NCBI GenBank assembly: GCA_963761825.1
Contig: CAVXIH010000010.1
Location: 155,554-219,553 of the forward strand
DNA from: an uncultured Acidobacteriota bacterium
Lineage (GTDB): Bacteria; Acidobacteriota; UBA6911
DNA: 64,000 nt
Direction: 5' to 3'
The translations under genes and the position numbers were made by a program. Under the pieces are notes generated by a model. It was not told the origin of the DNA, ran no database searches, and saw only the letters and a list, made by a program, of their open reading frames with translations. Positions 18,822 through 61,276 of the stretch are shown here, one piece after another. The first letter of the stretch is position 1; the number at the start of each line of letters is the position of its first letter.

Positions 18822-18918
18822 TATTGGAACGCTCTTCTTTGAAAAACCTGCCGCGCACAGGCGCCTGCATCGGCAGCAACGAAAATGGAGAATAGAAAGA
18901 CAGCATGCTGTGGTTCAG

Positions 18919-20640: not shown

Positions 20641-20834
20641 ATCCTCCTCGTCCCGTCAGGGCGCGTTGGATTGCAGGTTCCCTGCAAGGGCAGGCATATG
20701 AAAACCTTAATCGCCCCTGGATCCAATCCCGGCAACCTTTGTTATCACGCTATCTTGATTTGCTGGTCGAACATAGCCTGTTTTGCGCAGACTTTCAATC
20801 AGTTTTCCCAGGGGATAGCGCCTATCATTGCCAG

Positions 20835-21836: not shown

Positions 21837-22101
21837 TATTCCGTTTCTTCTGACTGAGGTTTGAAGCCGCCCCCGACACGCTATCGTTTTATACAATGGA
21901 TCATAGGAACGACGCAAGCAAGCGCTGCTCTTCATGCGCACCTTCCTCACTGCAAACAAAAACATGTGGGTCGGGGCTCTTTATTTCAACCCCGACGCAT
22001 TGCGACTCCAAACAGATGTATCAAAGTTTTGAGACATTTGAAGCTCCGACCCACATATTTTACTGGTTTGTGATGATGGAGTTGCCGCCTTCGAAAATCA
22101 A

Positions 22102-25758: not shown

Positions 25759-25852
25759 GGTTTTCCCCTTGAATATTGGATCCTTCGCATTTTTAGCCCG
25801 CATGTTTCACGATCTTTGTTTGGCAGGCAGGCTCGAACGCCAAAAACATATT

Positions 25853-27049
25853 TTAGGACCAGACACCTGCAATGGCTCTTCCGCAGAACTTGCAGTTCCC
25901 GCGCACAATATTCAGCTCCGCTATAAAAAAGGAGCTGCGTCGAATCACAACCTTCCCGCATTGGGGGCAGTATGTGTGATTGCCCGGATGGTCCGGCACA
26001 TTCCCGATATAGGCATAGCGAATGCCTTTGCTCATCGCGCAGTTCCGTGATCGCTCCAGTGTCGCCACCGGAGTGGGCGGGAGATGGAGGAGCTGATAAT
26101 CCGGGTGAAACCGCGTGAAATGAATCGGGACATCCGGCCCGATCTCTCCCATGATCCAATCTGCCAGTCCGGCCATCATTTTGTCTGAATCATTCAATGT
26201 CGGGACAACCAGATTGACGATTTCAAGGTGCACGCCGCTTTTGGCTATTTGCCGGATGCTGTTGAGAACCGGTCGAAGCTCCGCGCCGCATACATTGCGA
26301 TAAAAATCCTCGCTGTAACCCTTCAGGTCGATCTTAATCGCGTCCAGGATGCCGCACATTTCCTTCAGGGGTTCGGCGTTCATAAAGCCGCAGCTGATCA
26401 TCACGCAGCGCAGCTTCTGTTTTTTCGCCAACGCAGCGGTGTCGGCCAGATACTCCATAAACACGGTCGGTTCATTATAGGTAAAAGCTACGATAGGAGA
26501 TTGCCGCGCGGATGCCGATCCGACAATTGCGGCAGGCGCTACGAACGGCGTATCGAAATCCTCAGGCCGGGATTGAGAGATTTCCCAGTTCTGGCAGAAC
26601 TTGCAGCGCAACGGACAGCCCGAGGTCGCAAAGGAAAACGCATCGGAGCCTGGAAGGAAATGATAAAAAGGTTTCTTCTCGATCGGATCGATATGGATCG
26701 TTACTGGCCGGCCATAAACCAGGCTGCGCAACTCGCCGTTGACGTTCATGCGGGCGCGGCATTTTCCCCGCTCGCCCGGCTTGATGACGCAGGACTGGGC
26801 GCAGAGAAGGCATTTCACAATCGCATTTTTGCCGGCATGCGCCCCGACTTTAAGTTTTGATTCGGGCTTGTGGCATTGCATGCAGTCGATGCCGGGAGAT
26901 GCCGTGGAAATCCAATAGCGCGCTTTGGGCGCCGACCGGATTAAATCTCCTGTGCGGTCAAAAACCGCGGCTTGGGCAAACGCAAGGGAACTGCCGATTG
27001 TTGATCCGATTTTTGTTGCCGTAATCAGGAACTCACGTCGTGAAATCAT
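25853..27049 (-). CDS. AmmeMemoRadiSam-system radical SAM enzyme (PflA-like) with an N-terminal twin-arginine (Tat) signal extension
   Basis: SRREFLITATKIGSTIGSSLAFAQA Tat signal. CPLRCKFCQN radical SAM motif. The N-terminal C..C..C..GERGKC element is typical of this subfamily. Confidence 0.75.
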   Translation of the reverse strand: MISRREFLITATKIGSTIGSSLAFAQAAVFDRTGDLIRSAPKARYWISTASPGIDCMQCHKPESKLKVGAHAGKNAIVKCLLCAQSCVIKPGERGKCRARMNVNGELRSLVYGRPVTIHIDPIEKKPFYHFLPGSDAFSFATSGCPLRCKFCQNWEISQSRPEDFDTPFVAPAAIVGSASARQSPIVAFTYNEPTVFMEYLADTAALAKKQKLRCVMISCGFMNAEPLKEMCGILDAIKIDLKGYSEDFYRNVCGAELRPVLNSIRQIAKSGVHLEIVNLVVPTLNDSDKMMAGLADWIMGEIGPDVPIHFTRFHPDYQLLHLPPTPVATLERSRNCAMSKGIRYAYIGNVPDHPGNHTYCPQCGKVVIRRSSFFIAELNIVRGNCKFCGRAIAGVWS

Positions 27050-30691: not shown

Positions 30692-32460
30692 ATGGCAAAG
30701 CTTGATCCAACTAAACTTGCTGACTGGCAGATCGCATTTGAATGCGAAAAAGATATGAAGACAGTCCAGCAGCTTGCGGAAGGACTCGGAATCAAAGACA
30801 TGGAATTGATTCCCTATGGACATTATTATGGCAAGGTTGATTATCGAGCCATAATGGAGAGAGTAAAAGACAGACCGGACGGCAAATACATTGACGTTAC
30901 GGCGATCACCCCGACTCCTCTCGGGGAAGGCAAAAGCACTTCCACCATGGGCTTGGTTCAAGGCCTGGGAAAACGCGGAAAGAAAGTAACCGGCGCAATC
31001 CGTCAACCTTCCGGCGGACCGACCATGAACATCAAGGGAAGCGCGGCAGGTGGCGGCTTGGCGCAGTGCATTCCACTCACCCCGTTCTCACTTGGATTGA
31101 CCGGCGACATCAACGACATCATCAATGCGCACAACCTGGGAATGATCGCTCTCACTTCCAGAATGCAGCATGAATACATCAATGACGATGCCTTCCTGGC
31201 ATCCAAGAACCTGAAACGGCTGGATATCGATCACAGAAACGTTGAGATGAAGTGGGTTATCGATTTCTGCGCTCAAGCGCTCCGCAATATCACCATCGGC
31301 TATGGGCGGCAAGATGGATGGCTTCATGATGCAGTCCGGATTCGCCATTGCCGTAAGCTCCGAATTGATGGCGATTCTCGCTGTCGCCACCAGCCTCAAA
31401 GATATGCGTGAAAGAATCGGCAAAATGGTGGTTGCTTACAATAAAAAAGGCGATCCCGTCACGACAGCCGATCTTGAAGTGGATGGCGCCATGTGCGCAT
31501 GGATGGTCAATACTATCAATCCAAGCCTGCTGCAGACGATTGAAGGACAGCCCATTTTTGTTCACGCTGGACCGTTTGCCAATATCGCCATCGGTCAATC
31601 CTCCATCGTGGCGGATAAACTGGCCCTTAAGCTTGCGGATTATCACCTCACCGAAAGCGGATTCGGCGCCGACATCGGCTTCGAGAAATTCTGGAATCTC
31701 AAGTGCCGCTATTCCGGCCTGAAGCCGAATTGCGCCGTTGTGGTTGCCACTGTTCGCGCTCTCAAGAGCCATGGCGGCGGCCCCGCCGTTCCTCCGGGCA
31801 AAAAGCTGGATCCCGTTTACTCACAGGAAAACGTTGAGCTGGTGGAAAAAGGCTTGTGCAACCTTCTCAAACACATTGAGAACGTGAAGAAAGCCGGCAT
31901 CAACCCGGTCGTCTGCATCAACTCGTTCTACACGGACACAAAGGCCGAAATCGATTGCATCAAGAGAAACGTCGAAGCTATGGGCGCACGTTGCGCGGTT
32001 TCCGAACACTGGCTGAAGGGCGGCGACGGCGCGTTGGAGCTCTCCGATGCCGTCATTGATGCTTGCAACGAACCGAACAATTTCAAGTTCCTCTATGAAC
32101 TTGAAATGCCGCTCGGCAAGAGAATTGAAACTCATTGCCAAGGAAATCTATGGCGCAGATGGTGTAAGCTACACTCCGGCTGCCAAAGCCAAGCTCATCA
32201 AGATGGAAAAAGATCCTGAGCTTGCCAAACTCGGCACATGCATGGTCAAGACTCATCTCAGCCTTTCCCATGATCCCACCCTCAAAGGGGCACCCAAAGG
32301 CTGGACGTTGCCAATCCGCGACATCCTGACGTACAAGGGCGCGGGCTTTGTGGTTCCGGTTTCCGGGGATATCACCCTTATGCCGGGCACCGCATCGGAT
32401 CCTGCATACAGAAGAGTTGATGTAAATGTGGAAACCGGAAAAGTTACCGGTGTGTTCTAG
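30692..32460 (+). pseudogene. fhs: Formate--tetrahydrofolate ligase split over three frames, with frameshifts near 31290-31300 and 32125-32135
   Basis: [17 protein letters not shown]-loop in frame 1. GGKMDGF...[16 protein letters not shown] in frame 2. [11 protein letters not shown]...TGVF C-terminus in frame 3. Confidence 0.8.
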
Positions 32461-39488: not shown

Positions 39489-39797
39489 ATGGACGGAGAA
39501 GCATTTCGATTGCACAGAGCAGTCAACCGAAACGAGGCAAGCCAGTTAATGGACTTAAATATTGAAGATACAATAGACCTGCATTCGTTCCTGCCACGGG
39601 AAATAGCAGATCTGGTCGAGGAATATCTATATCAGGCGGTGCTCAAAGGCTACCGGGAAGTCCGCATCATTCATGGCCGGGGCATAGGAGTGCAGCGCAG
39701 TATGGTCCACTCTGTGCTGCAAAAGCATTCGAGCGTGGTTGCCTACCGCGATGAAATGGATCACGGCTCCACGATAGTTACGCTAAAGCAGGACTGA
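39489..39797 (+). CDS. Smr-domain protein
   Basis: DLHSF....EVRIIHGRG Smr signature. 102 aa. Confidence 0.7.
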   Translation: MDGEAFRLHRAVNRNEASQLMDLNIEDTIDLHSFLPREIADLVEEYLYQAVLKGYREVRIIHGRGIGVQRSMVHSVLQKHSSVVAYRDEMDHGSTIVTLKQD

Positions 39798-39918: not shown

Positions 39919-41841
39919 ATGAGGGCAATCTCACTGGGTATCATCATGCTGCTATCCGCATTGCCGATATTCTGCCAACAGCCTTCGAGCTCCTTCCTTT
40001 TCGTGGATGTGCGGGAAGAGGACTGGGACATCCGCGATTGGTCCTTGATCCGGCTCGGGCAGTTGAGTGTCCTCCACGAGCGAGCTGGAGACCAGCTTCA
40101 CGCGCAAGTGCTATCCACCGTGGAAGCTCCGGAAACGCCAAAGTTTCCGCACAGTGCCACTCCTTCATGCGATGGCAACTGCTTCCTCGTATCTTCTTTT
40201 GAGGGGGGCTCCCGGAACCAGCTCGGCGGCTACTATAGTGCTTTTTCCCTGGCGCCATCCGCCTCCCGCCTTACTCTGGAGAAATGGGATGGGGCCCATC
40301 GCGCCCTAACGCTGGAGTTCAGTCGAACTGGCGCCGGCTTTTGCGGAATGTGGGTGCATTTGTTTGATTTCCGGCAATCGCCGGCAGATCGTATCTATTT
40401 GGATATTGGAAACTACTCTTTCCTCACTTTCTGGGTTCGCGGACAGCGAGGAAACGAACGGATTCTATTGAAGGTTTCTGATGCCGATTGGGAACGGAAA
40501 GAGGATGCATTGCCGGTTGGCGAATTAAGCTCCTTTCTTCCAGGCCGGAAAATTGAAAGCACCTGGCAACGAGTGATTGTGCCCCTTTCAGCGTTGCCCC
40601 GCAGCCTGAATTCCCGCAGGCTGGCCTCTTTGGTTTTTGAAGCAGTCGGCTCCGGCACAGGACGCATCGCAATCAAAGATCTTGCATTTTGCCTTAAGTC
40701 TGAACCATTGCCGAGTCTAACACTTCCATCTGCTTCCAAAAGGGACGATCGAAAGCTCGAGAAGGCTATGTGGGTTTGGAATACTGCCGAGATTCTGCCC
40801 GTTGCCGCCAAACAGACTGCGCTGGCTGATTTTTGCCTCCGCCAGGGCATCGGCCAGCTGTACCTTCAGTTGCCAAAGAAAGAGAAAATGGATCCTCGCA
40901 GCGAGACGCTGCCTCTGGATGACCGATGGAGACGTTTGCTTTCGTTTCTCGCCGACAAAGGTGTTCGCGGCTATGCGCTTGACGGGTACAAGGAATTTGC
41001 ATTACCGGAGTGGCACGAACACGTTCTGGACACCGTGGACAAGGTTATTGCATACAATCGCACTGCCGCACCCGGCGAACGGTTCGCAGGCATTCACTAC
41101 GATATCGAACCTTACCTTCTTTCCGGATTTCACGGACCGAAGCGACAACAGATCCTTACGGCCTATCTCGAGCTTCTGGAAAAAATATCTGCGCGATCAA
41201 AAAGCGCCGGCATGAGTCTTGGCGTCGATATTCCATTCTGGTATGACACCCCTGATGCTCTCACAGGGAAAGATTTTGTTGTTGAATTCCACGGCAAGCC
41301 CAAGCCCGCCAGCGAACACATCATTGATTTGGTGGATTCGGTTGGCGTCATGGATTACCGCACGTCCGTCTTCGGCGCGGATGGAATTGCTGCGCAAGCG
41401 GAAGGAGAATTGGCCTATGCTGCAAGGTCCGGCAAAACAGTTTTAATAGGCCTCGAAACGATCCAGTTGCCGGATGAGGAATTGCTTCAGTTTAAGGGGA
41501 AGCCGATTCAAGGAATTCCCGAGCATGCTTCCGCGCAACGAATCATCGTCCTGGAGCGCATTTCCCGGGGAGCTCGAGTATGGCTTATACCCGCATCGCA
41601 ATGGGATGACTTTTACAGATCCGCCCGTGAACAAACAGACGCCGCAAAATTCCAATGGTGGCCGGCAGCTCAAACCATCGCAGTTCCGTCCAGCAAACTT
41701 ACGTTCGCTCGCCTGGGGGCGGACAAGCTGCAACAGGCAATTAGCGAAGCAGAAGAAGAGCTGCTTCGCTGGAGTTCCTTCGCTGGTTTTGCCTTCCACG
41801 ACTACATCGGCTTTCCATTTCTCCTCGAATCAAGGAAATAG
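39919..41841 (+). CDS. Secreted protein with an N-terminal beta-sandwich-like region and a C-terminal TIM-barrel glycoside-hydrolase-like domain. First gene of an EPS-type locus.
   Basis: Signal peptide MRAISLGIIMLLSALPIFCQQ. The start was moved from ORF 39799 to 39919. Confidence 0.55.
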   Translation: MRAISLGIIMLLSALPIFCQQPSSSFLFVDVREEDWDIRDWSLIRLGQLSVLHERAGDQLHAQVLSTVEAPETPKFPHSATPSCDGNCFLVSSFEGGSRNQLGGYYSAFSLAPSASRLTLEKWDGAHRALTLEFSRTGAGFCGMWVHLFDFRQSPADRIYLDIGNYSFLTFWVRGQRGNERILLKVSDADWERKEDALPVGELSSFLPGRKIESTWQRVIVPLSALPRSLNSRRLASLVFEAVGSGTGRIAIKDLAFCLKSEPLPSLTLPSASKRDDRKLEKAMWVWNTAEILPVAAKQTALADFCLRQGIGQLYLQLPKKEKMDPRSETLPLDDRWRRLLSFLADKGVRGYALDGYKEFALPEWHEHVLDTVDKVIAYNRTAAPGERFAGIHYDIEPYLLSGFHGPKRQQILTAYLELLEKISARSKSAGMSLGVDIPFWYDTPDALTGKDFVVEFHGKPKPASEHIIDLVDSVGVMDYRTSVFGADGIAAQAEGELAYAARSGKTVLIGLETIQLPDEELLQFKGKPIQGIPEHASAQRIIVLERISRGARVWLIPASQWDDFYRSAREQTDAAKFQWWPAAQTIAVPSSKLTFARLGADKLQQAISEAEEELLRWSSFAGFAFHDYIGFPFLLESRK

Positions 41842-42076
41842 AAGCATTCCGCAACAACAATTCTTTTTCCCCCTGCCTTCCCTCCAATAAACGAGTCTTG
41901 TAAGGACGTCCCCACAGGGGCGCCGCCATTGGCTGCGTTGCGTTTATCGTTTCCCGGAAGCCGGGGCCTTTTTCGTTTTCAGATAAGTAATCTTCGAACA
42001 CCGGACTGCCGATAAAGCAACGCGGGCATGAGATTTAAGGATACTCGCTTATCCAGATCCCGAGGATTACTGAGCT

Positions 42077-43387
42077 ATGCGCGTTGACAGCGGAACGATA
42101 AAACTAGCAGACAATTTAGCATCCTGCTGTTCCAGAAGCAGGTGGTCGAGTTGGGCCTGTTTTTGCCTGACAATGGTTCTGATGCTTACTGCAGGAACCG
42201 CCGCGCCGGCATTTCAATCGGATTCCGACTGGGCAACTCGCATTCGGGCACATGTGGATAGTGGAAATCTTCAACAGGCAATGGGCACAACCAATGAATG
42301 GCTCAAAGCATATCCGAACGATCTGGATGCGCGCGCCTGGCACGCGCGTTTGCAGGCCTGGACCAATCACTGGAAGGAAGCAGAGAATGAATATCGCGAA
42401 TTGACACAGCTTTCTCCCCGCGACACCGATTTGTGGATGGGGCTCGCGGATGTTCTGATTTGGCAGGCGCGCTACGAAGAGGCATTAACCTATATAGCCC
42501 GGGCGATGGAGATCGATCCCAAGAGAGCGGATTGCGAGCTTCGCCGTGCCCAGGCGCTTCAGGGGCTTGGCCGAAATCGTGAATCTCAAATCGCTTACCA
42601 AGAAATACTGACCAAGGACCCTTCTTCTGCTGAGGCCCGCAAGGGGCTGGATCAAATCCGTTCGGCAAAGCGTTACGAAATCCGCTTCGATTCCGAGTTA
42701 GACAATTTCAGCTACACCGACAGTGCCGGATTGTTCGGGCTGGCAATCCGATCCCGATGGAATTCCCGCTGGGCGACATTCGGTTCTCTTCACCGGTTCC
42801 AGCGGTTTGGCGAAGCTGCAACCAGGGTTGGTGCAGGCGCCACATTGAATTTCGGATCTCGGGATTCTCTCACTGTCGCCGGCGCTACGGCAGGAGACAA
42901 CGGCATTATTCCACGCGCAGAGGCTGAGTTTGAATACAGTCATGGATTCCGCCTGTCGGAAAGCGGGGCAATCCGCGGGGTCGAGGCCCTCTATCGGCAA
43001 CGCTGGCTCTGGTATCGCGACACGCGTCTGCTGGTTTTATCGCCCACTGCCATTCTGTACCTTCCGAAGGATTGGAACTGGCTGTTCCAATATTCGTCAA
43101 ATCGGACCGTCATTACCGGAAACGCACCGGATTGGAAGCCCTCCGGTTATACCAGGCTCACATTCCCTCTCGGAAGCCGACTCACGGGGAATCTCCTTTT
43201 TGCCGTGGGCGTTGAGAACTTCGGTTATGCCGACCAAATAAGCCAATATTCCATGCGCACCTATGGCGGTGGATTGCGATTTAGAGTTGCGACCGGCCAG
43301 GAGATCCTCGGCCACGGGCATTATCAGCAGTATTCCGACGGCAAAACTCTCGTGAACGTTGGGGCAAGCTATGCAATCCATTTTTGA
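42077..43387 (+). CDS. Outer-membrane protein with N-terminal TPR repeats and a C-terminal beta-barrel ending in Phe (PgaA/BcsC-like exopolysaccharide porin)
   Basis: TPR segment. Alternating-hydrophobic beta-strands. Terminal ...SYAIHF. Confidence 0.65.
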   Translation: MRVDSGTIKLADNLASCCSRSRWSSWACFCLTMVLMLTAGTAAPAFQSDSDWATRIRAHVDSGNLQQAMGTTNEWLKAYPNDLDARAWHARLQAWTNHWKEAENEYRELTQLSPRDTDLWMGLADVLIWQARYEEALTYIARAMEIDPKRADCELRRAQALQGLGRNRESQIAYQEILTKDPSSAEARKGLDQIRSAKRYEIRFDSELDNFSYTDSAGLFGLAIRSRWNSRWATFGSLHRFQRFGEAATRVGAGATLNFGSRDSLTVAGATAGDNGIIPRAEAEFEYSHGFRLSESGAIRGVEALYRQRWLWYRDTRLLVLSPTAILYLPKDWNWLFQYSSNRTVITGNAPDWKPSGYTRLTFPLGSRLTGNLLFAVGVENFGYADQISQYSMRTYGGGLRFRVATGQEILGHGHYQQYSDGKTLVNVGASYAIHF

Positions 43388-43397
43388 GGTATTGCCT

Positions 43398-44750
43398 GTG
43401 AGCAGTCTGGCCGAAACCGTAACGATCTCTCTGATCGCTACAGCCATCGGCATTGGATTGCTGATCTCCTTCATTCTATTGCGCCGAGCTTGGCGGAAAC
43501 GACATTTCCAGCGTCGTGACCAGCGGATCCAATACATTCGCGATAATTGGCAAAAAATTCTAAGCGAAGAGATTCGAGTTAAAGACTGGTTTTCGATAAA
43601 TATGAACCGCGATATAGTCGAGGAAATTCTTCTGGATCGACTCGCGGTGGCAGAGCCGGTTAAACTGCAATCGTTGCAGGAATTCGCGCGCCACAGCGGC
43701 CTCATGGATAGGAGAATTCGCCAGGTCGGCAAGAGCAAGGGCTGGAAGAAACGTCTGGCACTGATCGCGCTTGGTCGCATGCAATTGCCTGAAAGCATCC
43801 CTGCTCTTTCAGAAGCGTTGCAGGATCCGCGCGACGAAACTGTTGTGGATGCCATTCGCGCGCTTGGCCAGGTGAGCACGCCCGAAGCCGCACAGGCAAT
43901 CCTGCGGCAAGTTTCTCGAAAACCTCAGCAATGCCCTCCGCAAACAGTGCAAGCGGCATTAGCCCAATGCTATCGATCCGATCCGAAATTATTGTTAAGC
44001 GAAGTCCGGGAGGCGGATGATGTGTTGAGGCCAATCCTGGCGCGTGTGCTGGCAGAAGTTGCTGATCAAAGGCTGAGCGGCGACCTGATGGAGCTTGCGC
44101 TCGATCCTTTGGCAGAAGTGCGCGCATCAGCGGCACGCATTATTGCAGTGGTCAAGCCTTCCTACGCGCTCAACGTTCTTTCCATGCTTGCCGGGGATCC
44201 AGAATGGTTTGTTCGATTGCGCGCCGCCGTTGCGATTGGCGAACTGGGAGAAAGGCAAGGAATCCCCTTACTGATAAACGCGCTTTGCGATCACAACCGG
44301 TTCGTTCGTTTGCGGGCAGCCTCTCAACTGATCTGCTTCAAGGGTGACGAAGCCCAGGTGATCCAATTAGCAATGCAAACCGGGGATCGCTATGCCCTGC
44401 AGGCGCTTATTTCCGAAATCGAGCGCTCCGGGCGTCTGCCTGAAATGGTCAACGGCCTCGCGGCAGATGCTCCCAACCCGGTTATTGAGTCGGTTCTCCT
44501 GGCCGTTCTTCAGAACGGTTTCGCAAGCATTCTGGTAGACCTGTTGCTCAACCATCCGGATCGCCGTGTTTGCACTCGCCTGGCGCGACTCCTGGCTCGA
44601 TCCGGAGACGCGGCTCTTCTGGAACACTTGGCTCAGATCCATAAGCCGGATCTCGGGCTGGGACAGCAAAAGCTGCTGGGCTGGGCGATTGCACACCTGA
44701 AAGAAACAATCATTGCTTGCGAAGCAGGCAAGGAGGCGGTGTCTGCATGA
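43398..44750 (+). CDS. Membrane-anchored HEAT-repeat (PBS-lyase-type) protein
   Basis: GAGGT box 7 nt upstream of GTG 43398. One N-terminal TM helix followed by multiple HEAT-like repeats. Confidence 0.6.
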   Translation: MSSLAETVTISLIATAIGIGLLISFILLRRAWRKRHFQRRDQRIQYIRDNWQKILSEEIRVKDWFSINMNRDIVEEILLDRLAVAEPVKLQSLQEFARHSGLMDRRIRQVGKSKGWKKRLALIALGRMQLPESIPALSEALQDPRDETVVDAIRALGQVSTPEAAQAILRQVSRKPQQCPPQTVQAALAQCYRSDPKLLLSEVREADDVLRPILARVLAEVADQRLSGDLMELALDPLAEVRASAARIIAVVKPSYALNVLSMLAGDPEWFVRLRAAVAIGELGERQGIPLLINALCDHNRFVRLRAASQLICFKGDEAQVIQLAMQTGDRYALQALISEIERSGRLPEMVNGLAADAPNPVIESVLLAVLQNGFASILVDLLLNHPDRRVCTRLARLLARSGDAALLEHLAQIHKPDLGLGQQKLLGWAIAHLKETIIACEAGKEAVSA

Positions 44751-46183
44751 TAGAGTTCCTGACCATCTCCAGCTATTTCCTGTTCGCCTATTATGTCGCG
44801 ACAAATCTCATCTACCTTGTTTTGCTGGTCGCGTCGATCACCGAAACAGTCACACAGCAGAAGCGAATCGCTACTCTCCTTTTCGATCGTCTGCGCAACT
44901 CATCTCTCGCACCGCCCATCTCCATCCTTGTCCCTGCTCGCAATGAGGAGAAAAGCATCGTGGAATCGGTGCGGTCCTTTCTGGCTCTGGATTATCCGGA
45001 ACTTGAAGTCATCGTGGTTAACGATGGATCGACAGATGGCACGCTGGAGGAACTGCGCAAGCATTTCAGCCTATTGCGCACGGATATTCTATACGTTGCA
45101 GAAATTCCCACTCAACCGGTGCAAGGCGTGTATATGAGCGTCTCGGACCGGCGGTTACTGGTGCTCGACAAACAGTCGTGCGGCCGTAAGGCGGATGCGC
45201 TGAATGCCGCGCTCAATGCTGCGTCCAGCCCTTACATATGCGCTGTCGATGCGGACGCGATTTTGGAAAAAGATGCCTTGCTTCGCGTTATGGCTCCCGC
45301 TCTCAACGACCCGCGTCGCGTGATCGCCAGCGGCGGCATCGTACGGATTGCCAACGGCTCCAGTGTAAAGGACGGTGTCGTTCATCACGTTCGGCTGCCG
45401 CGGCGCATCATTGAGATCCTGCAGGTAATCGAATACTTGCGTGCGTTTCTGATCGGGCGGCAGGGATGGTCTTATTTCAACATGTTGACCATCATCTCCG
45501 GGGCATTCGGAATCTTCCGCCGCGACGTGTGCAGAGAGATCGGCGGTTTTCGTGTCTCGGCTATTGGCGAAGACATGGATCTAATTGTCCGAATGCACCG
45601 GCTCATGCGCACCCGGAAAGATCAATACAAAATTGCCTTTGTGCCGGATCCGGTTTGTTGGACCGAAGCGCCATCCTCCGCTAAGGCGCTGGCCAAGCAA
45701 CGCGCACGCTGGCAGAATGGCCTCTCAGATGTTCTTTTTCAGAATCGCGATATGGTGTTTAAGCCCCGATACGGCCGAATTGGATTCCTTGCCCTGCCCT
45801 ACCAGTGGCTGTTCGAATATGCCTCGCCGGTTATCGAGGTGTTCGGCTGGGCGTGCATGATCCTGGCTGGGATTCTGGGGATTCTAAAACCCTCTTTTTT
45901 CACCGAGTTCCTGCTCTTTGGCTATCTCTTCGGAATATTTATTTCCATCGGGTCTTTGGTTTTGGAAGAAATGACATACCACCGATACAACGATCCAAAG
46001 GATTTGATCCGGTTGATTGCCGTCAGCTTTCTGGAAATGATTCCATACCGTCAGATGAACAGCTTTTGGCGATTGCGTGGGATGTGGCAATATCTGAGAG
46101 GGAAAAACGACTGGCAGATGATCGAGCGCGTAGGATTTACATCCAAAGCCGGAACCTCCGCCGCATCCGGTGCCAAGGCATAA
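44747..46183 (+). CDS. GT2-family processive glycosyltransferase (PgaC/IcaA/cellulose-synthase-like)
   Basis: DGSTDGT, CAVDADA and QRARWQNG (QxxRW) motifs. The ATG overlaps the upstream stop (ATGA). AGGAGG at 44731. Confidence 0.8.
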   Translation: MIEFLTISSYFLFAYYVATNLIYLVLLVASITETVTQQKRIATLLFDRLRNSSLAPPISILVPARNEEKSIVESVRSFLALDYPELEVIVVNDGSTDGTLEELRKHFSLLRTDILYVAEIPTQPVQGVYMSVSDRRLLVLDKQSCGRKADALNAALNAASSPYICAVDADAILEKDALLRVMAPALNDPRRVIASGGIVRIANGSSVKDGVVHHVRLPRRIIEILQVIEYLRAFLIGRQGWSYFNMLTIISGAFGIFRRDVCREIGGFRVSAIGEDMDLIVRMHRLMRTRKDQYKIAFVPDPVCWTEAPSSAKALAKQRARWQNGLSDVLFQNRDMVFKPRYGRIGFLALPYQWLFEYASPVIEVFGWACMILAGILGILKPSFFTEFLLFGYLFGIFISIGSLVLEEMTYHRYNDPKDLIRLIAVSFLEMIPYRQMNSFWRLRGMWQYLRGKNDWQMIERVGFTSKAGTSAASGAKA

Positions 46184-46329
46184 CGCGGCCCTGCTATTGC
46201 ACTGCCAAAGAATATTCCTTGAGCTGCGGCAAATATCTTCAGCGAGCTTCCGTCGCCATAGGCATGCATTGAACGCGACTCATAGTGGCTCAATGCTTTC
46301 TCCCTGCCACTAGGACTCAGACAAGAATC

Positions 46330-48392
46330 CTAGGGAATCGCGTTAGCCGCTTTAGTGAGTGCTCTCAGGGCGGGAGCGATTGCGATGAGCATTTCTGCGT
46401 GCGTTTTTTCCGCCCGCTCAAGCGTAAGCGCCGCTTTTCCCTTCCAGTCCTCGGGCGGTCTCTGGCGCGATTCGAGATAATCCAGAGCCCGCAATCCCGT
46501 CTCGATCGATTCGGAGAGAGTCTCCGTTAGAGGCTCGATCTCCTTGAGAAGAAACGATTGCCTGATAACCGGCTTCAAGTCGGCCGAGTTGTCTCTCCAG
46601 GCAGAGAGCAATTTGCGGATCTGCTGAAAATCCTCTGTCGATCCGGCTGGGTTCGCGACTGCCCGGCCCACGGCATCGCCAAACTTTCGGGCAATCTCAC
46701 TTTCCGGCAAAACCGCGTCCACCATCCGATTCAAAGGGGTAAGACTGGAGTATGTGCGGGTTTTTACGCGAACGCCGAGTCGGGCGGGCTTGAGCAGGTC
46801 GGCGAGCATTTTCAGCGATGCGATGTTTTCGACTCCTGACATGCGCTGCAGCATCTTCATGGGGTTGGCCCGATGCATCAGGCCCAATGCATCCAGTTCT
46901 CCATTTACGAAATCGAGACGCCGGTACATGTCCTGTACGTCGCTGATTTCCCGGGGAGACCAGAGTCTTTCCGCAATCGCGGCCGTTCTCGGCCAGATCC
47001 TGGACTCGATGTTGTCAGAATTGACAAGTTCGCTCCACATGCAGGCTTCCCCTCCGAGAACCAGCGACTTTTCCTGGTCTGCCAGGCTTGCGGCCTCTTT
47101 GCCCAGGGGGTCGTTGTCATAGTGAAAAGAGGCGGGCTGCATTTGATCCAGATAGTAGCTATAGGATAGAACTCCGGCATAGCCCTGGCGTACGCTTTTT
47201 GCCAGATAGGAATGCCCTCGCCATGACTGAACTACCACGGTTTTGGGTAGGTCCGGATGGAGGATCTCATCCCAACCGATCATTTTTTTGCGGTGCTTCT
47301 CAAGAATTTGCTGCAGGCGCTGATTGAAATAGGCCTGTAACGCCGCATTATCCGGCAGCTTCTTTTGCACTTTGAAGGCCTGGATGCGCGAACTGGCGTT
47401 CCATTGCCTGCCGTTAACTTCATCGCCTCCAATGTGAAAATATTCGTCGGGGAAAAGTCCGGCCATCTCATCTATGAAGGAATTCAGAAAGTCATAGAGT
47501 TTCTTGGAGGTGGGATCCATGCAGGGATCAAAGACTCCCCAGGCGCGCTCGATGGAGTAGGGTCCGGGAGCGCTTGCCAGTTCGGGGTAGGCTGCAAGCC
47601 ACGCCGTCGTGTGGCCCGGCATGTCAAATTCCGGAATGATCCGGATGCCACGGTCGCGTGCGTAGTCAATGATTTCACGCACTTCCTGCTGGGTGTAATA
47701 GTTGCCCTCCGATGCGGCCAGCTGAAGTTTTGGAAATCGCCTGGACTCCACGCGAAATCCCTGGTCGTCAGACAGATGCCAGTGCAGGACATTCATCTTC
47801 ACTGCGGCCATGGCATCCAGATTCCGTTTGATGACTTCCGCCGGTTCCCAGTGGCGGGAGACGTCGATGAGCAATCCTCTCCAGCAAAAACGAGGCTCAT
47901 CTTTGATTTGCACGGCGGGGACAAAGAAGGATTTGTCATCGGTGCGTATCAGCTGCAGAAAGGTCTCCAGTCCGCGCAGGATGCCGATCGGAGACGGTGC
48001 TACCAGCCGGGCGCTTTGCTCTGTTACGTCCAGCGTGTAGGATTCATCGGCCCGAAGCGATTGGACCGGCTCTCCCGCTCCCGCACAGTGTATTTCGAGG
48101 GTTGCCTTGTTTCGAATCCGCGGAGGAGGCCATGGATAGCGGGATGCCGGTTTTCCTTTGAAGACGCTAGCAGCAATCGGCCTGTGGCTGCCGACACGCG
48201 CGGGTCTCCGTGTCCAGTCAGGATTACATCAAATGTGCTATCGATGGATAAGCGGCCCTGAGTCTGAACAAGGCTCTTCGGCATGGGCATCAGGTGCAGA
48301 GCCGGTTGCACCGGTTCTCCGATCCCGATTGCATAACTTGAAATCAAACCCGCAATGATCAAAGCGGCAGTGCGATGAATTCTGATCGGCAT
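46330..48392 (-). pseudogene. Secreted GH20 beta-N-acetylhexosaminidase (dispersin-B-like), with a frameshift between about 48030 and 48140
   Basis: HWHLSDDQGFR and HIGGDEV catalytic motifs. The GH20b N-domain with GILRGLETFLQL and the signal peptide lie in a different frame (ORF 48024..48392). Confidence 0.7.
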
Positions 48393-53916: not shown

Positions 53917-56900
53917 ATGAGCAAAGAACAAAGACAACTCAGCGCAGGCCTGGTTGTGGGTAACCGTTATAGGGTGGAACGGCATTTAAGCGCCAGCAGT
54001 ATGGGATCCGCATACTTCTGCACGGATCTCCTGGGAGGAGAGACCGAGGTCGTATTAAGGATTTTGAGTCTCGGTGCATCTATTTCAGAACAGGCTAAAG
54101 AGTGCAGTCGCGAGTTCTCGATCCTGCGCCGTCTAAACCATCCGAACCTGGTACGTATTGCGGATTTTGGCGTAGTGGAGAATTCGGGTGATTTGTTCCT
54201 GGTACGGGATTGGATTCATGGCCGAAACCTTTTCGCAGCGACCGAGGGGATGGATGCCGATGCCATACTGAATATAGCCATGGATCTATCGAGAGCGCTT
54301 CAATACCTGCATGCGCGGGGCATAGTTCATGGGCATTTGAGTCCTTTCAACGCCATCCTTTCAAACGAAGGGGAAGGAATCGGAAAGCTCAGATTAGTGG
54401 ATTTTGGTTTGGGCCGCAGGATTGGGAATGGGCAACTGGACCGCAGCATCGGAACGTTGGCCTATACGGCTCCGGAGATTCTGTTGGGAGGACATGTAAA
54501 CGGGCGCTCGGACTTATACTCCCTTGGAATCTTGCTGTATCAGCTGTTGACACGGCGGCTTCCGTTTGAGGATGCGGATCCCGAATTCTTAATACAGAAG
54601 CATTTGCAGAGCAGCGTGGATCTGCGCCCGATAGAGCGGATGCGAGGCGGGAACCGTGTGTCCCCGCTGGTACAGAGCCTGCTCGATAAGGACCCGGATA
54701 AAAGACCCGCATCCGGGGAAGACGTGATCCGGCTGATTATCGACGCTTCGGGGAGAAACTGGTTGAATGCCGACATCAAAGAATTGGAGAGCCATTTCTG
54801 CGCCTCCCAATTTGTCGGCCGCGAAAAAGAGCTGTTGCATCTGCAGGAATCAGCGAGGCGAGTGAGGGAAAACGGGCGTGGCTGGACTGTCTTTATAACC
54901 GGCGAAGCGGGATCGGGAAAAACCAGATGCATGGAAGAGCTGAAAAGCTGGGCACTCCTGGAGGGTTGGCAAATTGCGGAGGGCACGTGCGGGTCCCGCG
55001 AGGCCGGATCGTATGCGCCGTATCGCCAGATCCTGGCCAATAGCGATCCCGCGGAGGGAGAGGCGCTGTTCCACTTTCAAGATGCTCCTCGCGCGGCGGC
55101 GCCGGAAATATTTGATGCTTCTTCCGAGTACGCAACCGGCCAGTACCGCGATCTGCTAACCAGAGAACTGATACGGCGCATGAAGGCACGCCCGACACTG
55201 CTTTTGTTGCATGATTTCCATCTTGCAGATGAGGCCACCAGCACGGTCCTCGACTATTTGAGCTCCGATATTCAGGCGTCACTCCGTGTTGATGTGCGTC
55301 AGTCTTCGTTCCGGAGATGAGATTAAGGGAATCATGGGAAGAGTCATCGATTCGGCGACCCGGCAGGAGCGAGGGGAAGTGCTTCCGCTGGATCCCCTCG
55401 AAAAGGAAAGCGTGGAACAGCTGATTGAGGGAATGACGGGTGACAGCAGCCTGAAAGCGACGCTCGGAGAATGGATCTTTAAGAGTATCGGCGGGAATCC
55501 ATTTTTCCTCGAAGAGATGCTGAAGCACCTGGTCGAACAGAAACTCCTGTGCCGCGAATTCGGTAGATGGAGATTTGCCGAATCGGATCTGAAGAAGCTG
55601 GAAGTGCCTGAAAGCGTTGGTGCGGTCCTGCTGAGGCGTTTTGAACAATTGTCTCCTCCGGCCAGAGCGTTGGCTAACTGGCTGGCTTTGTTTCAAGGCG
55701 ATGTTTCCGAGATCGCTCCTGAACTCGGTGATGGCACAAAGTCCTGCTCTTACAACCGATGCCTTGCAGGAGCTGAGCCATCGCCAGATGACACGTACAG
55801 AAACGAAAAGAACCGAGGAGACAGTAGGATTCGTCCATTCCCTTATTGCAGAGGTGATCCAGAGCAACCTGCCCAAAAAGCTGCGCCAGAAAATGCACCG
55901 CAAAATAGCCGAAGTGCTTGAGCGGGAAATGGGAGCGGAAGGCAATGTGCAGGAACTGGCCATGCATTATATGGAGGGGAATGCGGGGGACGTTGCCGTT
56001 CGATATGCCTGGAACGCTGCGGTCCAGGCGCGCGCGGAATTCGCGCACGAGAGAGCATTGCATTGCTACGAGTATGTCTTTAAAAACAGAAACGGCTTGA
56101 CCAACGGGCAGATCTGCGCGGCGGCAATCGAGGCCAGCGATACGATGTTCGCCCTGGGACTGCCGAAACGGTCCATCCGTCTTTTGAAGATAGAAATATC
56201 CAGAGGCAAAACCGTGAGCGCCGAGCTTAAAGCGCGCATGTATATGCAGCTGGCATTGTCGTATCAGCACCTTGGCGATCTGCATAGGCAGGAAACGTGC
56301 TGCAAGAAAGGACTGAGCTTCTTTCGAAACCGGCCGGCCGGGGAAATCAATATGACCAAAGCGATGCTTTGGGCTGAAATGGCTTTTGCCGCCATCCTGC
56401 AGTCGCATTCCCGTCGAGGCTTACTCTTTTTGGACAAAGCGCGCAAATCCTGCCCTGCTGAAAATGCGGCTGCATTGGAAGGGCGCATAGAGAGTCTTGC
56501 CGCCTCCATGCACCGCATCGCCTGCAATTTGCGCAAAGCTCGGTCCGCAAGCGAAAAGGCAGCATCAATCCTTTCCCATTCTGAGGAATCCTATTTAGCC
56601 TGCTCTGCGTATTCTACCTTGGGAGGCGTTTTGGCAGGGATTGGTAGATTTCCCCTTGCGCTGAAAAAACATGCGCAGGCAGTTTCCTTGAGTGATAAAA
56701 GCCGTTCGGTAGTGCTCAGGTCTCAGACCTTGGGAAATCTCGCCGAATGCCTGTGCCGGATGGGACGTACGCAGGAGGCGGTGAATACTGCCGAACGTGC
56801 GGTCAAATCCGTATGCGACGCCAACAGCCCCGCAATCAGTTACGCATTCAACGCTATTCTGGCTGAAACCAGACTCGCTGCCGGCAACTATCGCGGTGCC

Positions 56901-59366
56901 TGCGAGGTTGTCGAAAAACTGGATCGCAACGCCAAACACAACCAGGCGATTTATACCGTGGGACATGTGCTCTATGTGGCAGCCAGCCTGAATTTTGTGT
57001 TGGGCAAATTCGATGCGGCGCTGGAGCATATCGGCAAACTATGCGCCATGGAAAACCGTGAAACCCCTTTCTACGAACGCGAGTTGGCAGAAGCTCTAAG
57101 AGCGCGAATCCTTTTCGAGCACGGGAATACTTCGAAAGCTCTGGCCAGTTTGTATGCGCTGGATAGGGAGGTGACGGAGAAACACTGGCCCTATCAGATG
57201 TGTGTCATAAAGCTGTACATAGGCGACATGCTGGTAAGGCAGCGGAAGCTGGATAAGGCGGAGCGATATGTCAGAAATGCACTCAGATTGGCGAAAGCCA
57301 TGCAGGCCGTTTCCCTGATAGCGTATAGCCATTTTCTGCTGGGACTGATCTATGCGCAACTGCATCGTTCGGGAGGTGGGATGGGCTGCAGCGATGGGAA
57401 AGGAGATCTTGGGCCTGCCGAGCCCTTCCGGGCTAGAGCGATTGAAGAGCTTCGAGAGGCCTGCCGGATAGCAGAATCTTCGTATCATGCCGAAACTGTA
57501 TGGAGAGCGCATGCTGAATTAAGCCGGATCCTGAGGTCCATGCCGGCTGCAGGCAATTACCTGGAGCATGCGAAAAAAGCCTACGAGCTTTTGTGTAAAG
57601 CTGAAGATCAAGTGCCCTCGGAAATGCTGCCGGCTTATTGCAGCGCCTTCGACCGGAGCCGGATAAAGGAAGAATTAGCCCGCCTGATCGAATCGGGCAG
57701 AGATCAGGAAAGCGGTGCCGGAGTTGCTGTCGCCGAAGTACGCGATGAAGAAAAAGCCCGGATATTGCTGCGCGTGAGCGCGACGGTGAGCACTATCGGG
57801 GAACCGGGGCCTTTACTGGAAGCGATTCTCGATCAACTGGTCCAAGCGGTGAAAGTTGAACGGGCCTTTATATTTTTAAGGGATGAACTGACTGGAAGCC
57901 TGCAGTTGGCCAAAGGAAGAAACGACAGGCAGGAGTCCCTGACGGGAGAGAACAATTTGGACCGGAGCATTCTGGTAGATGTATTGAAAAACGGGAAGCC
58001 GATCGTAAGTGCCAACGCACACGAGGATCCGCGCTTCAGAGACAAAGATCGCGCGGCCTCCCATAAGACTGGAAAGCTCCTGTGCGCCCCGCTGAAGCTG
58101 TCGGACCGGATTCTTGGAGTGCTTTATGCGGACCACTCCTCTCCGGCGGGAGGCTTAAGCGACTCGACCGTCAGCCTCTTCGCTGCCTTCTGCAACATTG
58201 CGGCAATGGCGATTGACAGCGCTCTGGCGCATCAGCGACTGGTGCAAGAAAAAACCGAGCTGGAAAAATACCTGCACCAGGCGAGGGGGGAGGAGTATGC
58301 GGAGATCGTCGGGCGCTGCGCATCCGTTGAGTTGCTGCGAGACCGGATAGGCCTTGCCGCCGCTTCTCCCGCGGATATCCTGATCACCGGGGAGAGCGGA
58401 ACGGGCAAAGAACTGGTTGCCCGGGCCATTCATCGAACCGGACGGCGGAAGAATGGAAAATTTGTAGCCGTCGATTGCGGTTCTCTTTCCGATACTCTTG
58501 CCGAAGCCGAGCTCTTCGGTTTCCGTAAAGGGGCGTTTACGGGCGCCGCGGAAAACCGGCAAGGGCTGTTGGAGGCAGCCCACGGAGGAATCCTTTTCCT
58601 GGATGAATTGTCCAATCTTCCTTTTCACATACAGGCCAAATTTCTGCGGGTTCTCCAGGAGCGTGAGGTGCGGCGATTGGGTGAAACCATCCCTCGGAAG
58701 ATCGATATTCAAGTCATCGCCGCGACCAACAAGGATCTTCTGGAGGAGATGAGAAATGAAAAGTTTCGGATGGATCTCTATTACAGGCTGAAGGAAATTG
58801 AAATCCGGGTGCCTCCGCTGCGGGAGCGTTCGGGGGACATCCCCCTTCTGATCGAATGGTTTTTAAGTCAATTGGCAGACCGGGAAGGGGGGCGGTCCAA
58901 GCGATTTTTGTCCGAAGCGCTGGAATTGCTCAAAGGATATTCCTACCCGGGAAACATCAGGGAGTTGAGAAATATCGTTGTCAGTTCCTACTATTCGACG
59001 GCCAAAACAAGTCTCGGGATTGACGATCTGCCGCCCGAAGTCCGCCGCGGGAAGGCCGTGCCGGTCGGCCCGGAATTGATTGCCGCAGCTGGTATATACC
59101 GTGAAATTCTTGAAGGAAGAGGCAATTTTGAGAGCCTGGTGCAGGAGCCTTTTTTGCAGCACCAATTTGGTTCATCGTTTGTCCGGGCCATAATCCAAAG
59201 GGCCCTGGAAGACTCCGGCGGCATATACTTGCAGGCGTTTTTGTTGCTGCGCATTCCCGAAAGCCGCTACTCCGTGACCATGCAATTCCTGAAGCGCAAC
59301 AACTGCTACCTCGACTTCCGTCCCTTCAGGCGCAATCGCGGGAAGAACGAGGATCCCAGTCCATAG
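53917..59366 (+). pseudogene. Giant multidomain regulator: Ser/Thr (pseudo)kinase - STAND/AAA NTPase - TPR - GAF - sigma-54 activator AAA+ - Fis-type HTH. Split by frameshifts near 55290-55300 and 55725-55735.
   Basis: Kinase-like domain with HGHLSP and VDFG. P-loop TGEAGSGKT. Sigma54 motifs GESGTGKE and GAFTGA. C-terminal HTH. Pieces are ORFs 53917..55320, 55286..55921 and 55641..59366. Confidence 0.65.
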
Positions 59367-59407: not shown

Positions 59408-61276
59408 TCAGGATCGGGGCGGGAATCCAATTACATTGCTGTCCAGGGATGCGGTTTCTTCGGCACGCGCTTCGACGCTTTTCTGGGCCGAACGGAGAAG
59501 AGCAAAGATATTGATGCCATCCCGGGGGTAGGAGGCCATGCCAATCTGGCAATCGATAGTATAATTTTGGCCTCCGATGGTTGAGGCGTGGCTTTGAATC
59601 TGCTGCCTGAGGCGCTGAGCGCAATGAAGCGCCTGTTCGTCGCGTATGCCGGGCAAAAACGCAACGAAACTCTGGTGCCCGAATCGAACCACGATATCGG
59701 TCTCTCGCAGCTCCAGTTTGATATCATCCGCTATCTTTTTTATGGCCGCATGCCCAATTTCTGTTCCATAGAGACGGGTAATTTGGCTCAAGTTGCTGAT
59801 TTCAAAGAAGATCAGAGAAGCCGGAGACCTGTTTATTTCGGCGAGAGAGATCAACTGCGGGCTGATTGCCGTCAGATAGGACATGCGGTGCATCCGCGTG
59901 GTCGGGTCCAGGATTTTTTCGGCTGCCGGGGCTTCCTGTTTTTTTGAATCGGAAATGATCGGCGCAAGAAATCCGGCCAATGCCTGGAGGATTTCCAGTT
60001 CGTTTCGGGTGTATGTGGAGGGTGCCTGCGTATAGAGGGAAATGGTCCCCAAGGATTCATTGTCGTGGGTGATGGGGACGACCAGCGTATCTTTGAATAT
60101 GGAAAAATCGCCTTCGATATCCTGAAAATCGAGGGCCGGCCCGGTATTGATCATCGGCCGCCCGTGAGCGTATACCCAGCCGCTGATCCCTTTTCCGACG
60201 CTCATGATGTGGTCCTGAATTTTCTCGGCGAAAATGCCGCCTGCATGTACGGCGCGCAGACTGTCATTGCCTTCAAGCAAATAGAAAGCGCAGGTATCGA
60301 ATGGCACGATTTTCTTCATCCGGGAGGCGAATATAGGGAGTAGATCTTTCAGATCAAGATGTCCTGCAATGGTGCTGCAGAATTCGGCAAGCAGGATAAG
60401 CTCTGCCGGCATATCCATGGTATTCGAGGGAACTGAAGCCGAAACATCGGCAGCCGACAGGGCCTGGTTGACCGTTTCGAAATATTTCCGGAAAGACGGT
60501 TCCGGGGAGTTTTCCGCTTCTTTGACGGCAGCTTGCTCTATTTCTTCAATGTGATCGGCGAACAGTTTTACCACTTCCGGATCGTAAAAGATTCCGGATT
60601 GGGCCAGCAAAAGCTCGCGCGCTTCTTCTGTCTGGATAGCGAGTTTGTAGGGCCGGGAGAAACGAATGGCATCGAAAGCATCGGCAACCGCGAGGATTCT
60701 GGATGCCAGGGGTATTTCCTCGCCTTTCAGGCCGTCAGGGTAGCCATTCCCATCCCATCGTTCGTGGTGGTGGCGGACATATTTTGCGGCTGGATAAGGG
60801 AAGTGGACATGCTGCAGGATCTCGTCTCCCGCAGCGGCATGCACTTTAATTTTTTCAAATTCCTCCTTTGAAAGCCGCCCGGGTTTATTGAGGATGTAGT
60901 CGTCTATCGCCAGTTTGCCGATATCATGGAGCAGAGCGGCTGTCTTTATCGCTTTTAACTCATTCGGATCTTTGATGTTGCAAAGCTCTGCCATCCGAGT
61001 TGCATAAATCTTCACTCTGCGGATATGGCCATACGTTGTCTGGTCTTTGGCATCAACCGCCAAGGCAAGGGATTCCACGGTTCGCATATACAGCTGCTCC
61101 TGTTCTTCCAAATGCTTTTCGGCTTCCGTTACTCGGGTTTTAATAACTTGATTCCATCCCCATAGCCAACTCCAATTAGTGGTGCAACTACGAGAGGGAT
61201 GCACCATGTGATCTGAAGAATTCATGAAGTCGACTAATGATAATAGCAGAAACTGAGGCTGAAATGGAATAATCAA
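59408..61276 (-). CDS. HD-GYP phosphodiesterase - GAF - degenerate GGDEF protein. The start is uncertain.
   Basis: HHERWDGNGYP HD-GYP motif. The GGDEF-like C-terminus reads RFGHQSF instead of GG(D/E)EF. Confidence 0.7.
   Translation of the reverse strand: MIIPFQPQFLLLSLVDFMNSSDHMVHPSRSCTTNWSWLWGWNQVIKTRVTEAEKHLEEQEQLYMRTVESLALAVDAKDQTTYGHIRRVKIYATRMAELCNIKDPNELKAIKTAALLHDIGKLAIDDYILNKPGRLSKEEFEKIKVHAAAGDEILQHVHFPYPAAKYVRHHHERWDGNGYPDGLKGEEIPLASRILAVADAFDAIRFSRPYKLAIQTEEARELLLAQSGIFYDPEVVKLFADHIEEIEQAAVKEAENSPEPSFRKYFETVNQALSAADVSASVPSNTMDMPAELILLAEFCSTIAGHLDLKDLLPIFASRMKKIVPFDTCAFYLLEGNDSLRAVHAGGIFAEKIQDHIMSVGKGISGWVYAHGRPMINTGPALDFQDIEGDFSIFKDTLVVPITHDNESLGTISLYTQAPSTYTRNELEILQALAGFLAPIISDSKKQEAPAAEKILDPTTRMHRMSYLTAISPQLISLAEINRSPASLIFFEISNLSQITRLYGTEIGHAAIKKIADDIKLELRETDIVVRFGHQSFVAFLPGIRDEQALHCAQRLRQQIQSHASTIGGQNYTIDCQIGMASYPRDGINIFALLRSAQKSVEARAEETASLDSNVIGFPPRS

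Follow-up and report, generated by a model that had tools for sequence, protein, structure and literature searches.

What kind of polysaccharide machinery is encoded by a compact gene cluster of an uncultured soil bacterium of the Terriglobia (Acidobacteriota; GTDB lineage UBA6911), and is it a divergent copy of a known system or one of its own? The cluster lies in a stretch of 64,000 nucleotides, here called the window (assembly GCA_963761825.1, contig CAVXIH010000010.1, positions 155,554 to 219,553), and consists of four open reading frames (ORFs) on the same strand and one convergent gene between 39.8 and 48.4 kb. In soil and peat, Terriglobia rank with the most abundant bacteria, and their exopolysaccharides probably influence how soil aggregates and retains carbon. 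Little is known about the genes for these polymers. An earlier description drafted from the DNA letters (the original prediction) had placed four co-directional ORFs here and called them an uncharacterised locus of the synthase-dependent type, distinct from pga and ica; the ORF listing and the comparisons below bear out both points. The locus is likely, in our view, to encode a compact polysaccharide secretion system of the synthase-dependent type that is specific to Terriglobia. Its core is three genes, encoding an outer-membrane porin, a HEAT-repeat protein and a glycosyltransferase family 2 (GT2) synthase, and the HEAT gene constantly accompanies the synthase gene and is translationally coupled to it. 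What was observed is gene content, folds, motifs and synteny; from these we infer the mechanism, including complex formation, topology, polymer identity and regulation. The features of the locus are listed by window coordinates.

39919-41841, plus strand: gene 1, 640 aa, a CBM30-like beta-sandwich and a (beta/alpha)8-barrel, glycosidase-like, predicted to be secreted
41952-41978, plus strand: terminator-like hairpin and T-run between gene 1 and the porin gene
42077-43387, plus strand: gene 2 (porin), 436 aa, signal peptide, about four tetratricopeptide repeats (TPR) and, at the C-terminus, a predicted YaiO-type beta-barrel (about 215 aa)
43371-44750, plus strand: gene 3 (HEAT), 459 aa, single-pass inner-membrane protein with a predicted cytoplasmic HEAT-repeat solenoid
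44747-46183, plus strand: gene 4 (GT2), 478 aa, processive family-2 synthase, a distant relative of PgaC/IcaA
46330-48392, minus strand: convergent GH20 beta-N-acetylhexosaminidase split by a frameshift, a neighbour probably outside the system

Conserved gene order defines the core. Searching species-representative genomes gave at least 589 GT2 relatives, and the matches listed included 80 loci from Terriglobia (Acidobacteriota), 69 of which had enough upstream sequence for gene order to be read. The order porin-HEAT-GT2 was kept in 66 of these 69 loci, and the HEAT gene was immediately 5' of the GT2 gene in 68. The HEAT ATG overlapped the porin gene by exactly 17 nt (50 of 58 loci), and in 29 loci the HEAT stop and GT2 start shared 4 nt (ATGA or GTGA); most other HEAT/GT2 junctions had a 1-nt overlap or a gap of up to 3 nt. 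Because these start/stop overlaps are conserved, the core can be regarded as a translationally coupled triad. The ATGA overlap at 44747-44750, which had been noticed before, is real, and an overlap or a gap of no more than 3 nt is usual at this point in relatives. The tight spacing proposed for all four genes holds for the overlapping porin, HEAT and GT2 genes and fails for gene 1, which is separated from the porin gene by 235 nt. Coupling through a GTG at 43398 was also not upheld. This codon was rejected as the HEAT start because the exact 17-nt overlap recurs in relatives, which places the start at ATG 43371, 17 nt inside the porin gene.

The HEAT protein was described in the original prediction as a membrane-anchored repeat protein, and this agrees with its match to HEAT_2 (Pfam, E 4e-23) and with a single predicted N-terminal transmembrane helix. 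The AlphaFold2 model (mean predicted local distance difference test, pLDDT, 90.4) has one long helix (residues 13-58) followed by about 13 helical hairpins. The hydrophobic segment at residues 12-40 is directly followed by the strongly basic RRAWRKRHFQRRDQR, and because of this basic stretch the positive-inside rule predicts that the solenoid is cytoplasmic. Conservation within the family is among the highest in the membrane anchor and in the juxtamembrane segment. The family itself is small and specific, with 84 cluster representatives (50% identity) at E up to 1e-30. The ~1,200-aa proteins whose alignment begins at the N-terminus are longer HEAT arrays and not fusions, and none of ten representatives examined was fused to another domain. 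A hidden Markov model (HMM) of the family did not match PgaD (E 0.7). In full-text literature searches, which did not cover subscription-only literature, no account of a HEAT-repeat protein as part of a bacterial polysaccharide synthase system came up; within that coverage, the earlier claim that such a component is absent from described exopolysaccharide machinery stands.

Gene 4 matches GT2 families in Pfam and carries the motifs of a processive synthase, as had been predicted from its QxxRW motif. They read DGS93, DAD168-170, GED274-276 and QRARW318-322, and D93, D168-x-D170, G274-E-D276 and Q318-R-x-R-W322 are invariant across 27 homologues. Hydrophobic or transmembrane segments (residues 9-32 and 359-407) lie on either side of the catalytic domain. 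Sequence comparison indicates PgaC/IcaA as the nearest characterised family: identity to Escherichia coli PgaC is 31% over the catalytic domain (E 8e-35), and the GT2 family HMM ranks PgaC above YaiP, BcsA and NfrB, with YaiP as the second-best E. coli match (E 1.4e-15) and NfrB barely detected (E 3.5e-4). Among solved structures, hyaluronan and cellulose synthases were the only matches, and they were weak (catalytic and membrane-proximal region). The relationship to PgaC raises the question of whether the locus is a true poly-beta-1,6-GlcNAc (PNAG) system, that is, a divergent pga operon in which the HEAT protein stands in for PgaD, gene 1 for the hydrolase half of PgaB, and the GH20 enzyme serves in dispersal. 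PgaC/IcaA being the best-matching characterised synthase family speaks for such a system, whereas an identity of 31% is too low for the sugar or linkage specificity of the synthase to be read from it, and gene 4 scores 135.8 bits against the PgaC equivalog model TIGR03937, for which the cut-off is 422.3 bits.

Comparison of the export protein gave a similar result. Gene 2 has a signal-like N-terminus and TPR matches (TPR_14/19/2) at residues ~57-190, and residues 223-436 match the YaiO barrel model TIGR04390 over profile positions 25-230 of 230 (E 5.9e-6). The same model was matched by 5 of 26 homologues (E up to 1e-3; best 4.4e-9), and the last residue was phenylalanine in 66 of 67 homologues. 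A terminal phenylalanine is the usual signature of outer-membrane barrels. These three features agree with the TPR plus beta-barrel porin anticipated for this gene. It had also been likened to PgaA and BcsC, which is apt for the architecture and does not extend to the barrel family: outside the TPR part there is no match to PgaA, BcsC or NfrA, and the barrel has no sequence similarity to those of PgaA or BcsC. A PgaA- or BcsC-type barrel was rejected on this basis. For PNAG, the matching of PgaA models by the TPR part is a further point in favor, while the full PgaA equivalog (TIGR03939) is again far below its cut-off (37.4 vs 366.65 bits, TPR region only).

No PgaD/IcaD ORF is present in the locus, and no PgaB (CE4 + GH153; CE4, carbohydrate esterase family 4) was found among the window ORFs tested. 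Because every pga equivalog test failed, the locus is not a pga operon. There are resemblances to PgaABCD/IcaADBC: a membrane GT2 of the same broad family, a small membrane partner encoded beside the synthase, a TPR and barrel protein of the outer membrane, and deacetylases that accompany some versions of the Terriglobia locus. The differences concern the partner, a 459-aa HEAT solenoid in place of the 137-aa PgaD; the export protein, which has 436 aa and a YaiO-type barrel, as against 807 aa for PgaA; the lack of PgaB; and the order porin-partner-synthase. A PNAG system appears unlikely for these reasons.

Synthase-dependent exopolysaccharide secretion systems of Gram-negative bacteria are defined by four features (PMC7112194), and three of them are found here: a GT2 synthase (its activity read from motifs), a TPR protein with a pore, and a periplasmic modifying enzyme (gene 1, by fold only). 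The fourth, a module binding cyclic di-GMP (c-di-GMP), was not detectable; the HEAT protein occupies the partner position, and a minority of relatives have GGDEF or PilZ genes directly beside the core. The larger ORFs tested from 32.6 to 55.3 kb included no CE4, PgaD, PilZ or GGDEF gene. About 13 kb downstream of the synthase, a protein with HD-GYP-type (HD_5), GAF and GGDEF domains is encoded at 59408-61276 (minus strand), the sole c-di-GMP-related gene among the window ORFs tested.

In the mechanism that we propose, the GT2 enzyme in the inner membrane would polymerise a beta-linked sugar from a nucleotide-sugar donor and thread the chain through its own membrane channel, as in PgaC, BcsA and hyaluronan synthases. 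The HEAT protein would be anchored beside it by one helix, its cytoplasmic solenoid acting as an obligatory stabilising or regulatory partner and taking the position that c-di-GMP receptor domains, PgaD or IcaD have in known systems. In the periplasm, the chain would be received by the TPR domain of gene 2, and the YaiO-type barrel would carry it over the outer membrane. Where present, gene 1 may encode a glycosidase, periplasmic or secreted, for trimming or clearing the polymer (compare BcsZ, the C-terminal domain of PgaB, PelA and PslG). The polymer would most likely be an acetylated hexosamine-type homopolymer, which is the weakest step of the proposal.

What polymer is made can be approached through the variable neighbours of the sister loci. 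Six loci have, in the position upstream of the porin gene, a divergent gene for a classical CE4 deacetylase (Polysacc_deac_1, E 7e-37; NodB/PdaB-like). A further protein, of 640 aa (family 620-700 aa; e.g., L020:5408-7330), is encoded directly 5' of the porin gene in 14 loci. It has no match in Pfam, NCBIfam or PDB, and its profile aligns weakly with CE4 (E 8.6e-4, probability 24%), with LSHDVDW and SH(S/T)xIH falling weakly on two CE4 metal motifs; from these alignments it may represent a new deacetylase family tied to the synthase. The original prediction of no CE4 deacetylase and no PgaD is correct for the window (larger ORFs, 32.6-55.3 kb) and does not carry over to sister loci, which have CE4 or CE4-like genes upstream of the porin gene. 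In four loci the GT2 gene is followed, after 7-8 nt, by a GGDEF diguanylate cyclase gene, and a further such gene is found upstream; a PilZ protein is encoded after the GT2 gene in one Joint Genome Institute (JGI) contig and next to the core in two more loci. Because CE4, GGDEF and PilZ neighbours recur in independent lineages, an acetylated polymer under c-di-GMP influence is favored. The CE4 genes flanking the core in some relatives would also suit PNAG. On the comparative evidence, we regard a polymer of the N-acetylhexosamine type as a reasonable working candidate, with chances approaching even.

Other genes were also seen beside the core in relatives. Two JGI contigs from close relatives have PEGA-domain and TonB_C-domain genes after the GT2 gene, with the PilZ gene between in one of them, and these proteins may be further accessory parts that the window lacks. 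In eight related loci (including L019, L040, L043, L044, L059 and L080), a convergent PspA/IM30 gene lies just after the GT2 gene, and a gene of ~480 aa (cluster 9) comes after it.

Gene 1 had been predicted to encode a secreted protein resembling glycoside hydrolases (GH), and this is supported by a hydrophobic signal-like N-terminus and by a confident AlphaFold2 model (55 homologues, pLDDT 91.5, predicted TM-score 0.88). In the model, a beta-sandwich is followed by an eight-fold beta/alpha barrel that carries an inserted beta subdomain. The single Pfam match, to CBM30, is sub-threshold; the family profile matches CBM30 (E 1e-5) and PDB entry 10yv, deposited as 'putative GH97 from Cellulomonas fimi' (E 2e-9). 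In Foldseek searches of PDB, the first domain matched CBM11/CBM30 modules and the barrel matched GH18 chitinases, SleL, Cwp19 and GH97, with PgaB lower, as match number 48. Invariant residues stand at the C-terminal ends of barrel strands, D395-x-E397-P after beta4 and E513 after beta7. Retaining glycosidases of clan GH-A have their catalytic residues at the strand-4 and strand-7 positions of the barrel, and the D-x-E of gene 1 is reminiscent of GH18. Membership of GH18 is not indicated: there was no GH18 match in Pfam or NCBIfam, the beta4 motif is H393-x-D395-x-E397-P and not the DxxDxDxE expected, and GH18 enzymes, the top folds, reached TM-scores of just 0.39-0.53 on target. Gene 1 also has no sequence similarity to PgaB (E 0.5), which counts against a PNAG system. 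From the model, gene 1 appears to be a secreted carbohydrate-binding protein of glycosidase-like fold.

The distribution of gene 1 differs from that of the core. It adjoins the core in L004, the genome closest to the window, in a Bryobacteraceae genome (L088) and in the two JGI contigs, and probably in about a dozen further contigs, whose lengths coincide between three homologue match lists; of the 80 related loci, all but L004 lack it. Gene 1 is thus a clade-specific accessory gene (the window clade plus one Bryobacteraceae genome) and not a core member. The gap between it and the porin gene holds a terminator-like hairpin at 41952-41966. Because of the gap and the hairpin, co-transcription of gene 1 with the core is uncertain, and so is the significance of the hairpin, because it was not seen at the corresponding place in L004 or L088. 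A small Smr-domain gene (39489-39797, plus strand) stops 121 nt before the gene 1 start.

The N-terminal domain of gene 1 brings in another possibility, that the GT2 enzyme makes a beta-glucan (cellulose-like, curdlan-like or mixed-linkage) instead of an amino-sugar polymer. CBM30 and CBM11, the modules closest to this domain, are beta-glucan binders, and the synthase weakly matches cellulose synthase models. The PgaC/IcaA model outscores CelA/BcsA, however (136 vs 56 bits; with the family HMM, 107 vs 23 bits). The locus has neither a BcsB-like subunit nor a PilZ domain on the synthase, and the CE4 neighbours of relatives are better suited to an acetylated sugar. A beta-glucan is accordingly improbable, to a slightly greater degree than PNAG.

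The convergent GH20 gene was the basis of the 'poly-N-acetylhexosamine hallmark' of the original prediction, where it was likened to dispersin B. Its catalytic domain is clear (Glyco_hydro_20, E 4e-97), and it adjoins the core in the window, as a dispersal enzyme of a PNAG system might. The gene is split, however, into ORFs at 48024-48392 (122 aa, signal peptide) and 46330-47913 (catalytic domain), with the frame change near 48090-48110 and an N-terminal GH20b-like region in the upstream frame. Among solved structures it is nearest to 6yhh, a GH20 of 673 aa (E 8e-127), and to lysosomal HexA/B (E 1e-73), as against E 1e-13 for DspB. A dispersin-like enzyme was rejected because the exo-hexosaminidases of HexA/B type are far closer. 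No GH20 gene was found beside the core in the 80 related loci or in three further contigs. Being frameshifted, of HexA/B type and not conserved beside the core, the GH20 gene is no evidence for the nature of the polymer, so the hallmark falls with it, and it also argues against PNAG. It is probably an unrelated neighbour that is not part of the system. The idea of an acetylated sugar survives, as the deacetylase neighbours of sister loci suggest, independently of GH20. Two more window genes look split by frame changes: a formate-tetrahydrofolate ligase ORF (30692-32219, plus strand) covers profile positions 182-452 of 556 only, and an aldehyde:ferredoxin oxidoreductase-like ORF (10998-12687) has only partial domain matches. 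Taken together, the three cases suggest indel errors of the assembly more than true pseudogenes; for the GH20 frameshift itself, with at least one other window gene similarly truncated, an assembly indel is as likely as a pseudogene.

Several observations weigh against the system as proposed. For the HEAT protein, the fold search returned generic solenoids only (designed alphaRep/armadillo proteins and importins) and is uninformative on function for that reason; no HEAT-GT2 fusion was found among the 150 best 50%-identity cluster representatives. Since the folds are generic and fusions were not seen, gene order is the one line of evidence that points to physical contact between HEAT and GT2. 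For the export protein, the TIGR04390 score (26.4 bits) is below the 32-bit cut-off, and the barrel of about 215 residues is smaller than those of PgaA, BcsC and PelB. For regulation, no c-di-GMP-binding domain (PilZ, GGDEF I-site, MshEN or GIL) was detectable in the four window proteins, and the CE4, GGDEF and PilZ neighbours are limited to a minority of loci. For gene 1, homologues in Gemmatimonadota and one deltaproteobacterium have no synthase nearby, and its CBM30-like domain, being closest to glucan-binding modules, fits a glucan as well as a hexosamine polymer. No homologue of the locus proteins carries a functional name, and the parts of the locus are known from sequence and models only.

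The generic folds and missing fusions, with the lack of any enzymatic or ligand-binding domain, would also be expected if the HEAT protein were not part of the machine at all and were a co-transcribed passenger or served another process. Its position argues otherwise: it stands between porin and synthase in 66 of 69 loci, with start and stop codons whose overlaps are conserved, the synteny holds across lineages in which identity to the window HEAT protein is just 35-52%, and few parts of the protein are as well conserved as the membrane anchor and the juxtamembrane region. We consider a passenger role very improbable. That the HEAT protein is a true synthase subunit is the reading that we lean towards, by a modest preference, from gene order and sequence conservation. 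The broader proposal is more tentative and somewhat doubtful at present: the HEAT solenoid may be the obligatory subunit of a new class of bacterial synthase complex, a helical-repeat co-polymerase or regulator (possibly a point of action for c-di-GMP, PilZ or GGDEF proteins) that replaces PgaD, IcaD or PilZ modules in making a major matrix polymer of Terriglobia.

Known partners of processive GT2 synthases include PgaD/IcaD, BcsB, Alg44 and PelD/E. If the HEAT protein is a synthase subunit, a new type of partner would join this short list, and it would offer a handle on the control of synthases that have no built-in c-di-GMP receptor. It would also resemble eukaryotic solenoid activators of chitin and cellulose synthases. 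Cytoplasmic alpha-solenoid partners of processive GT2 enzymes are found in yeast (Chs4/Skt5 with chitin synthase Chs3) and in plants (CSI1 with cellulose synthase); no homology is implied, and those proteins have Sel1-like or armadillo repeats and are not known to have a comparable membrane anchor. The three-gene cassette, kept by nearly all of the 69 Terriglobia loci, is small enough to be transplanted.

Two E. coli systems are closest to the locus in layout. In the yaiO-yaiP-yaiS region, a YaiO-family barrel is encoded beside a GT2 (YaiP) and a deacetylase (YaiS). YaiO lacks a TPR domain, in contrast to gene 2, and the region has no HEAT protein; to our knowledge, it is itself uncharacterised. 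The other is NfrB-NfrA-YbcH, a c-di-GMP-controlled system for a ManNAc polymer (PMC8669469), which shares with the Terriglobia core a minimal set of three genes with overlapping frames, encoding an inner-membrane GT2, a TPR and beta-barrel outer-membrane protein and one auxiliary protein (PMC8669469). Unlike the window GT2, NfrB has an MshEN c-di-GMP receptor domain. YbcH is located in the periplasm, in contrast to the predicted cytoplasmic position of the HEAT solenoid, and no HEAT protein occurs in that system.

The best relatives of every locus protein are in metagenome-assembled acidobacterial genomes, and a public sequencing run contains an identical 5-kb contig. Rfam searches of the whole window and of two leader regions found no regulatory RNA. 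Three further gene groups of the window were noted. At 53917-59366 (plus strand), a fusion of a Ser/Thr protein kinase with an AAA_16 ATPase is followed by a 1241-aa protein with TPR, GAF and sigma-54 activator domains, and the two may be a signalling pair. At 17286-23970 (minus strand), a PP-binding and class I/II aminotransferase fusion, an AMP-binding enzyme, a protein of the NAD-dependent epimerase/dehydratase family and a spermine-synthase-domain protein are encoded, in a cluster that looks like a small lipid or amino-lipid biosynthetic set. At 24238-27049 (minus strand), a Memo-AMMECR1 fusion protein is encoded beside a radical SAM enzyme.

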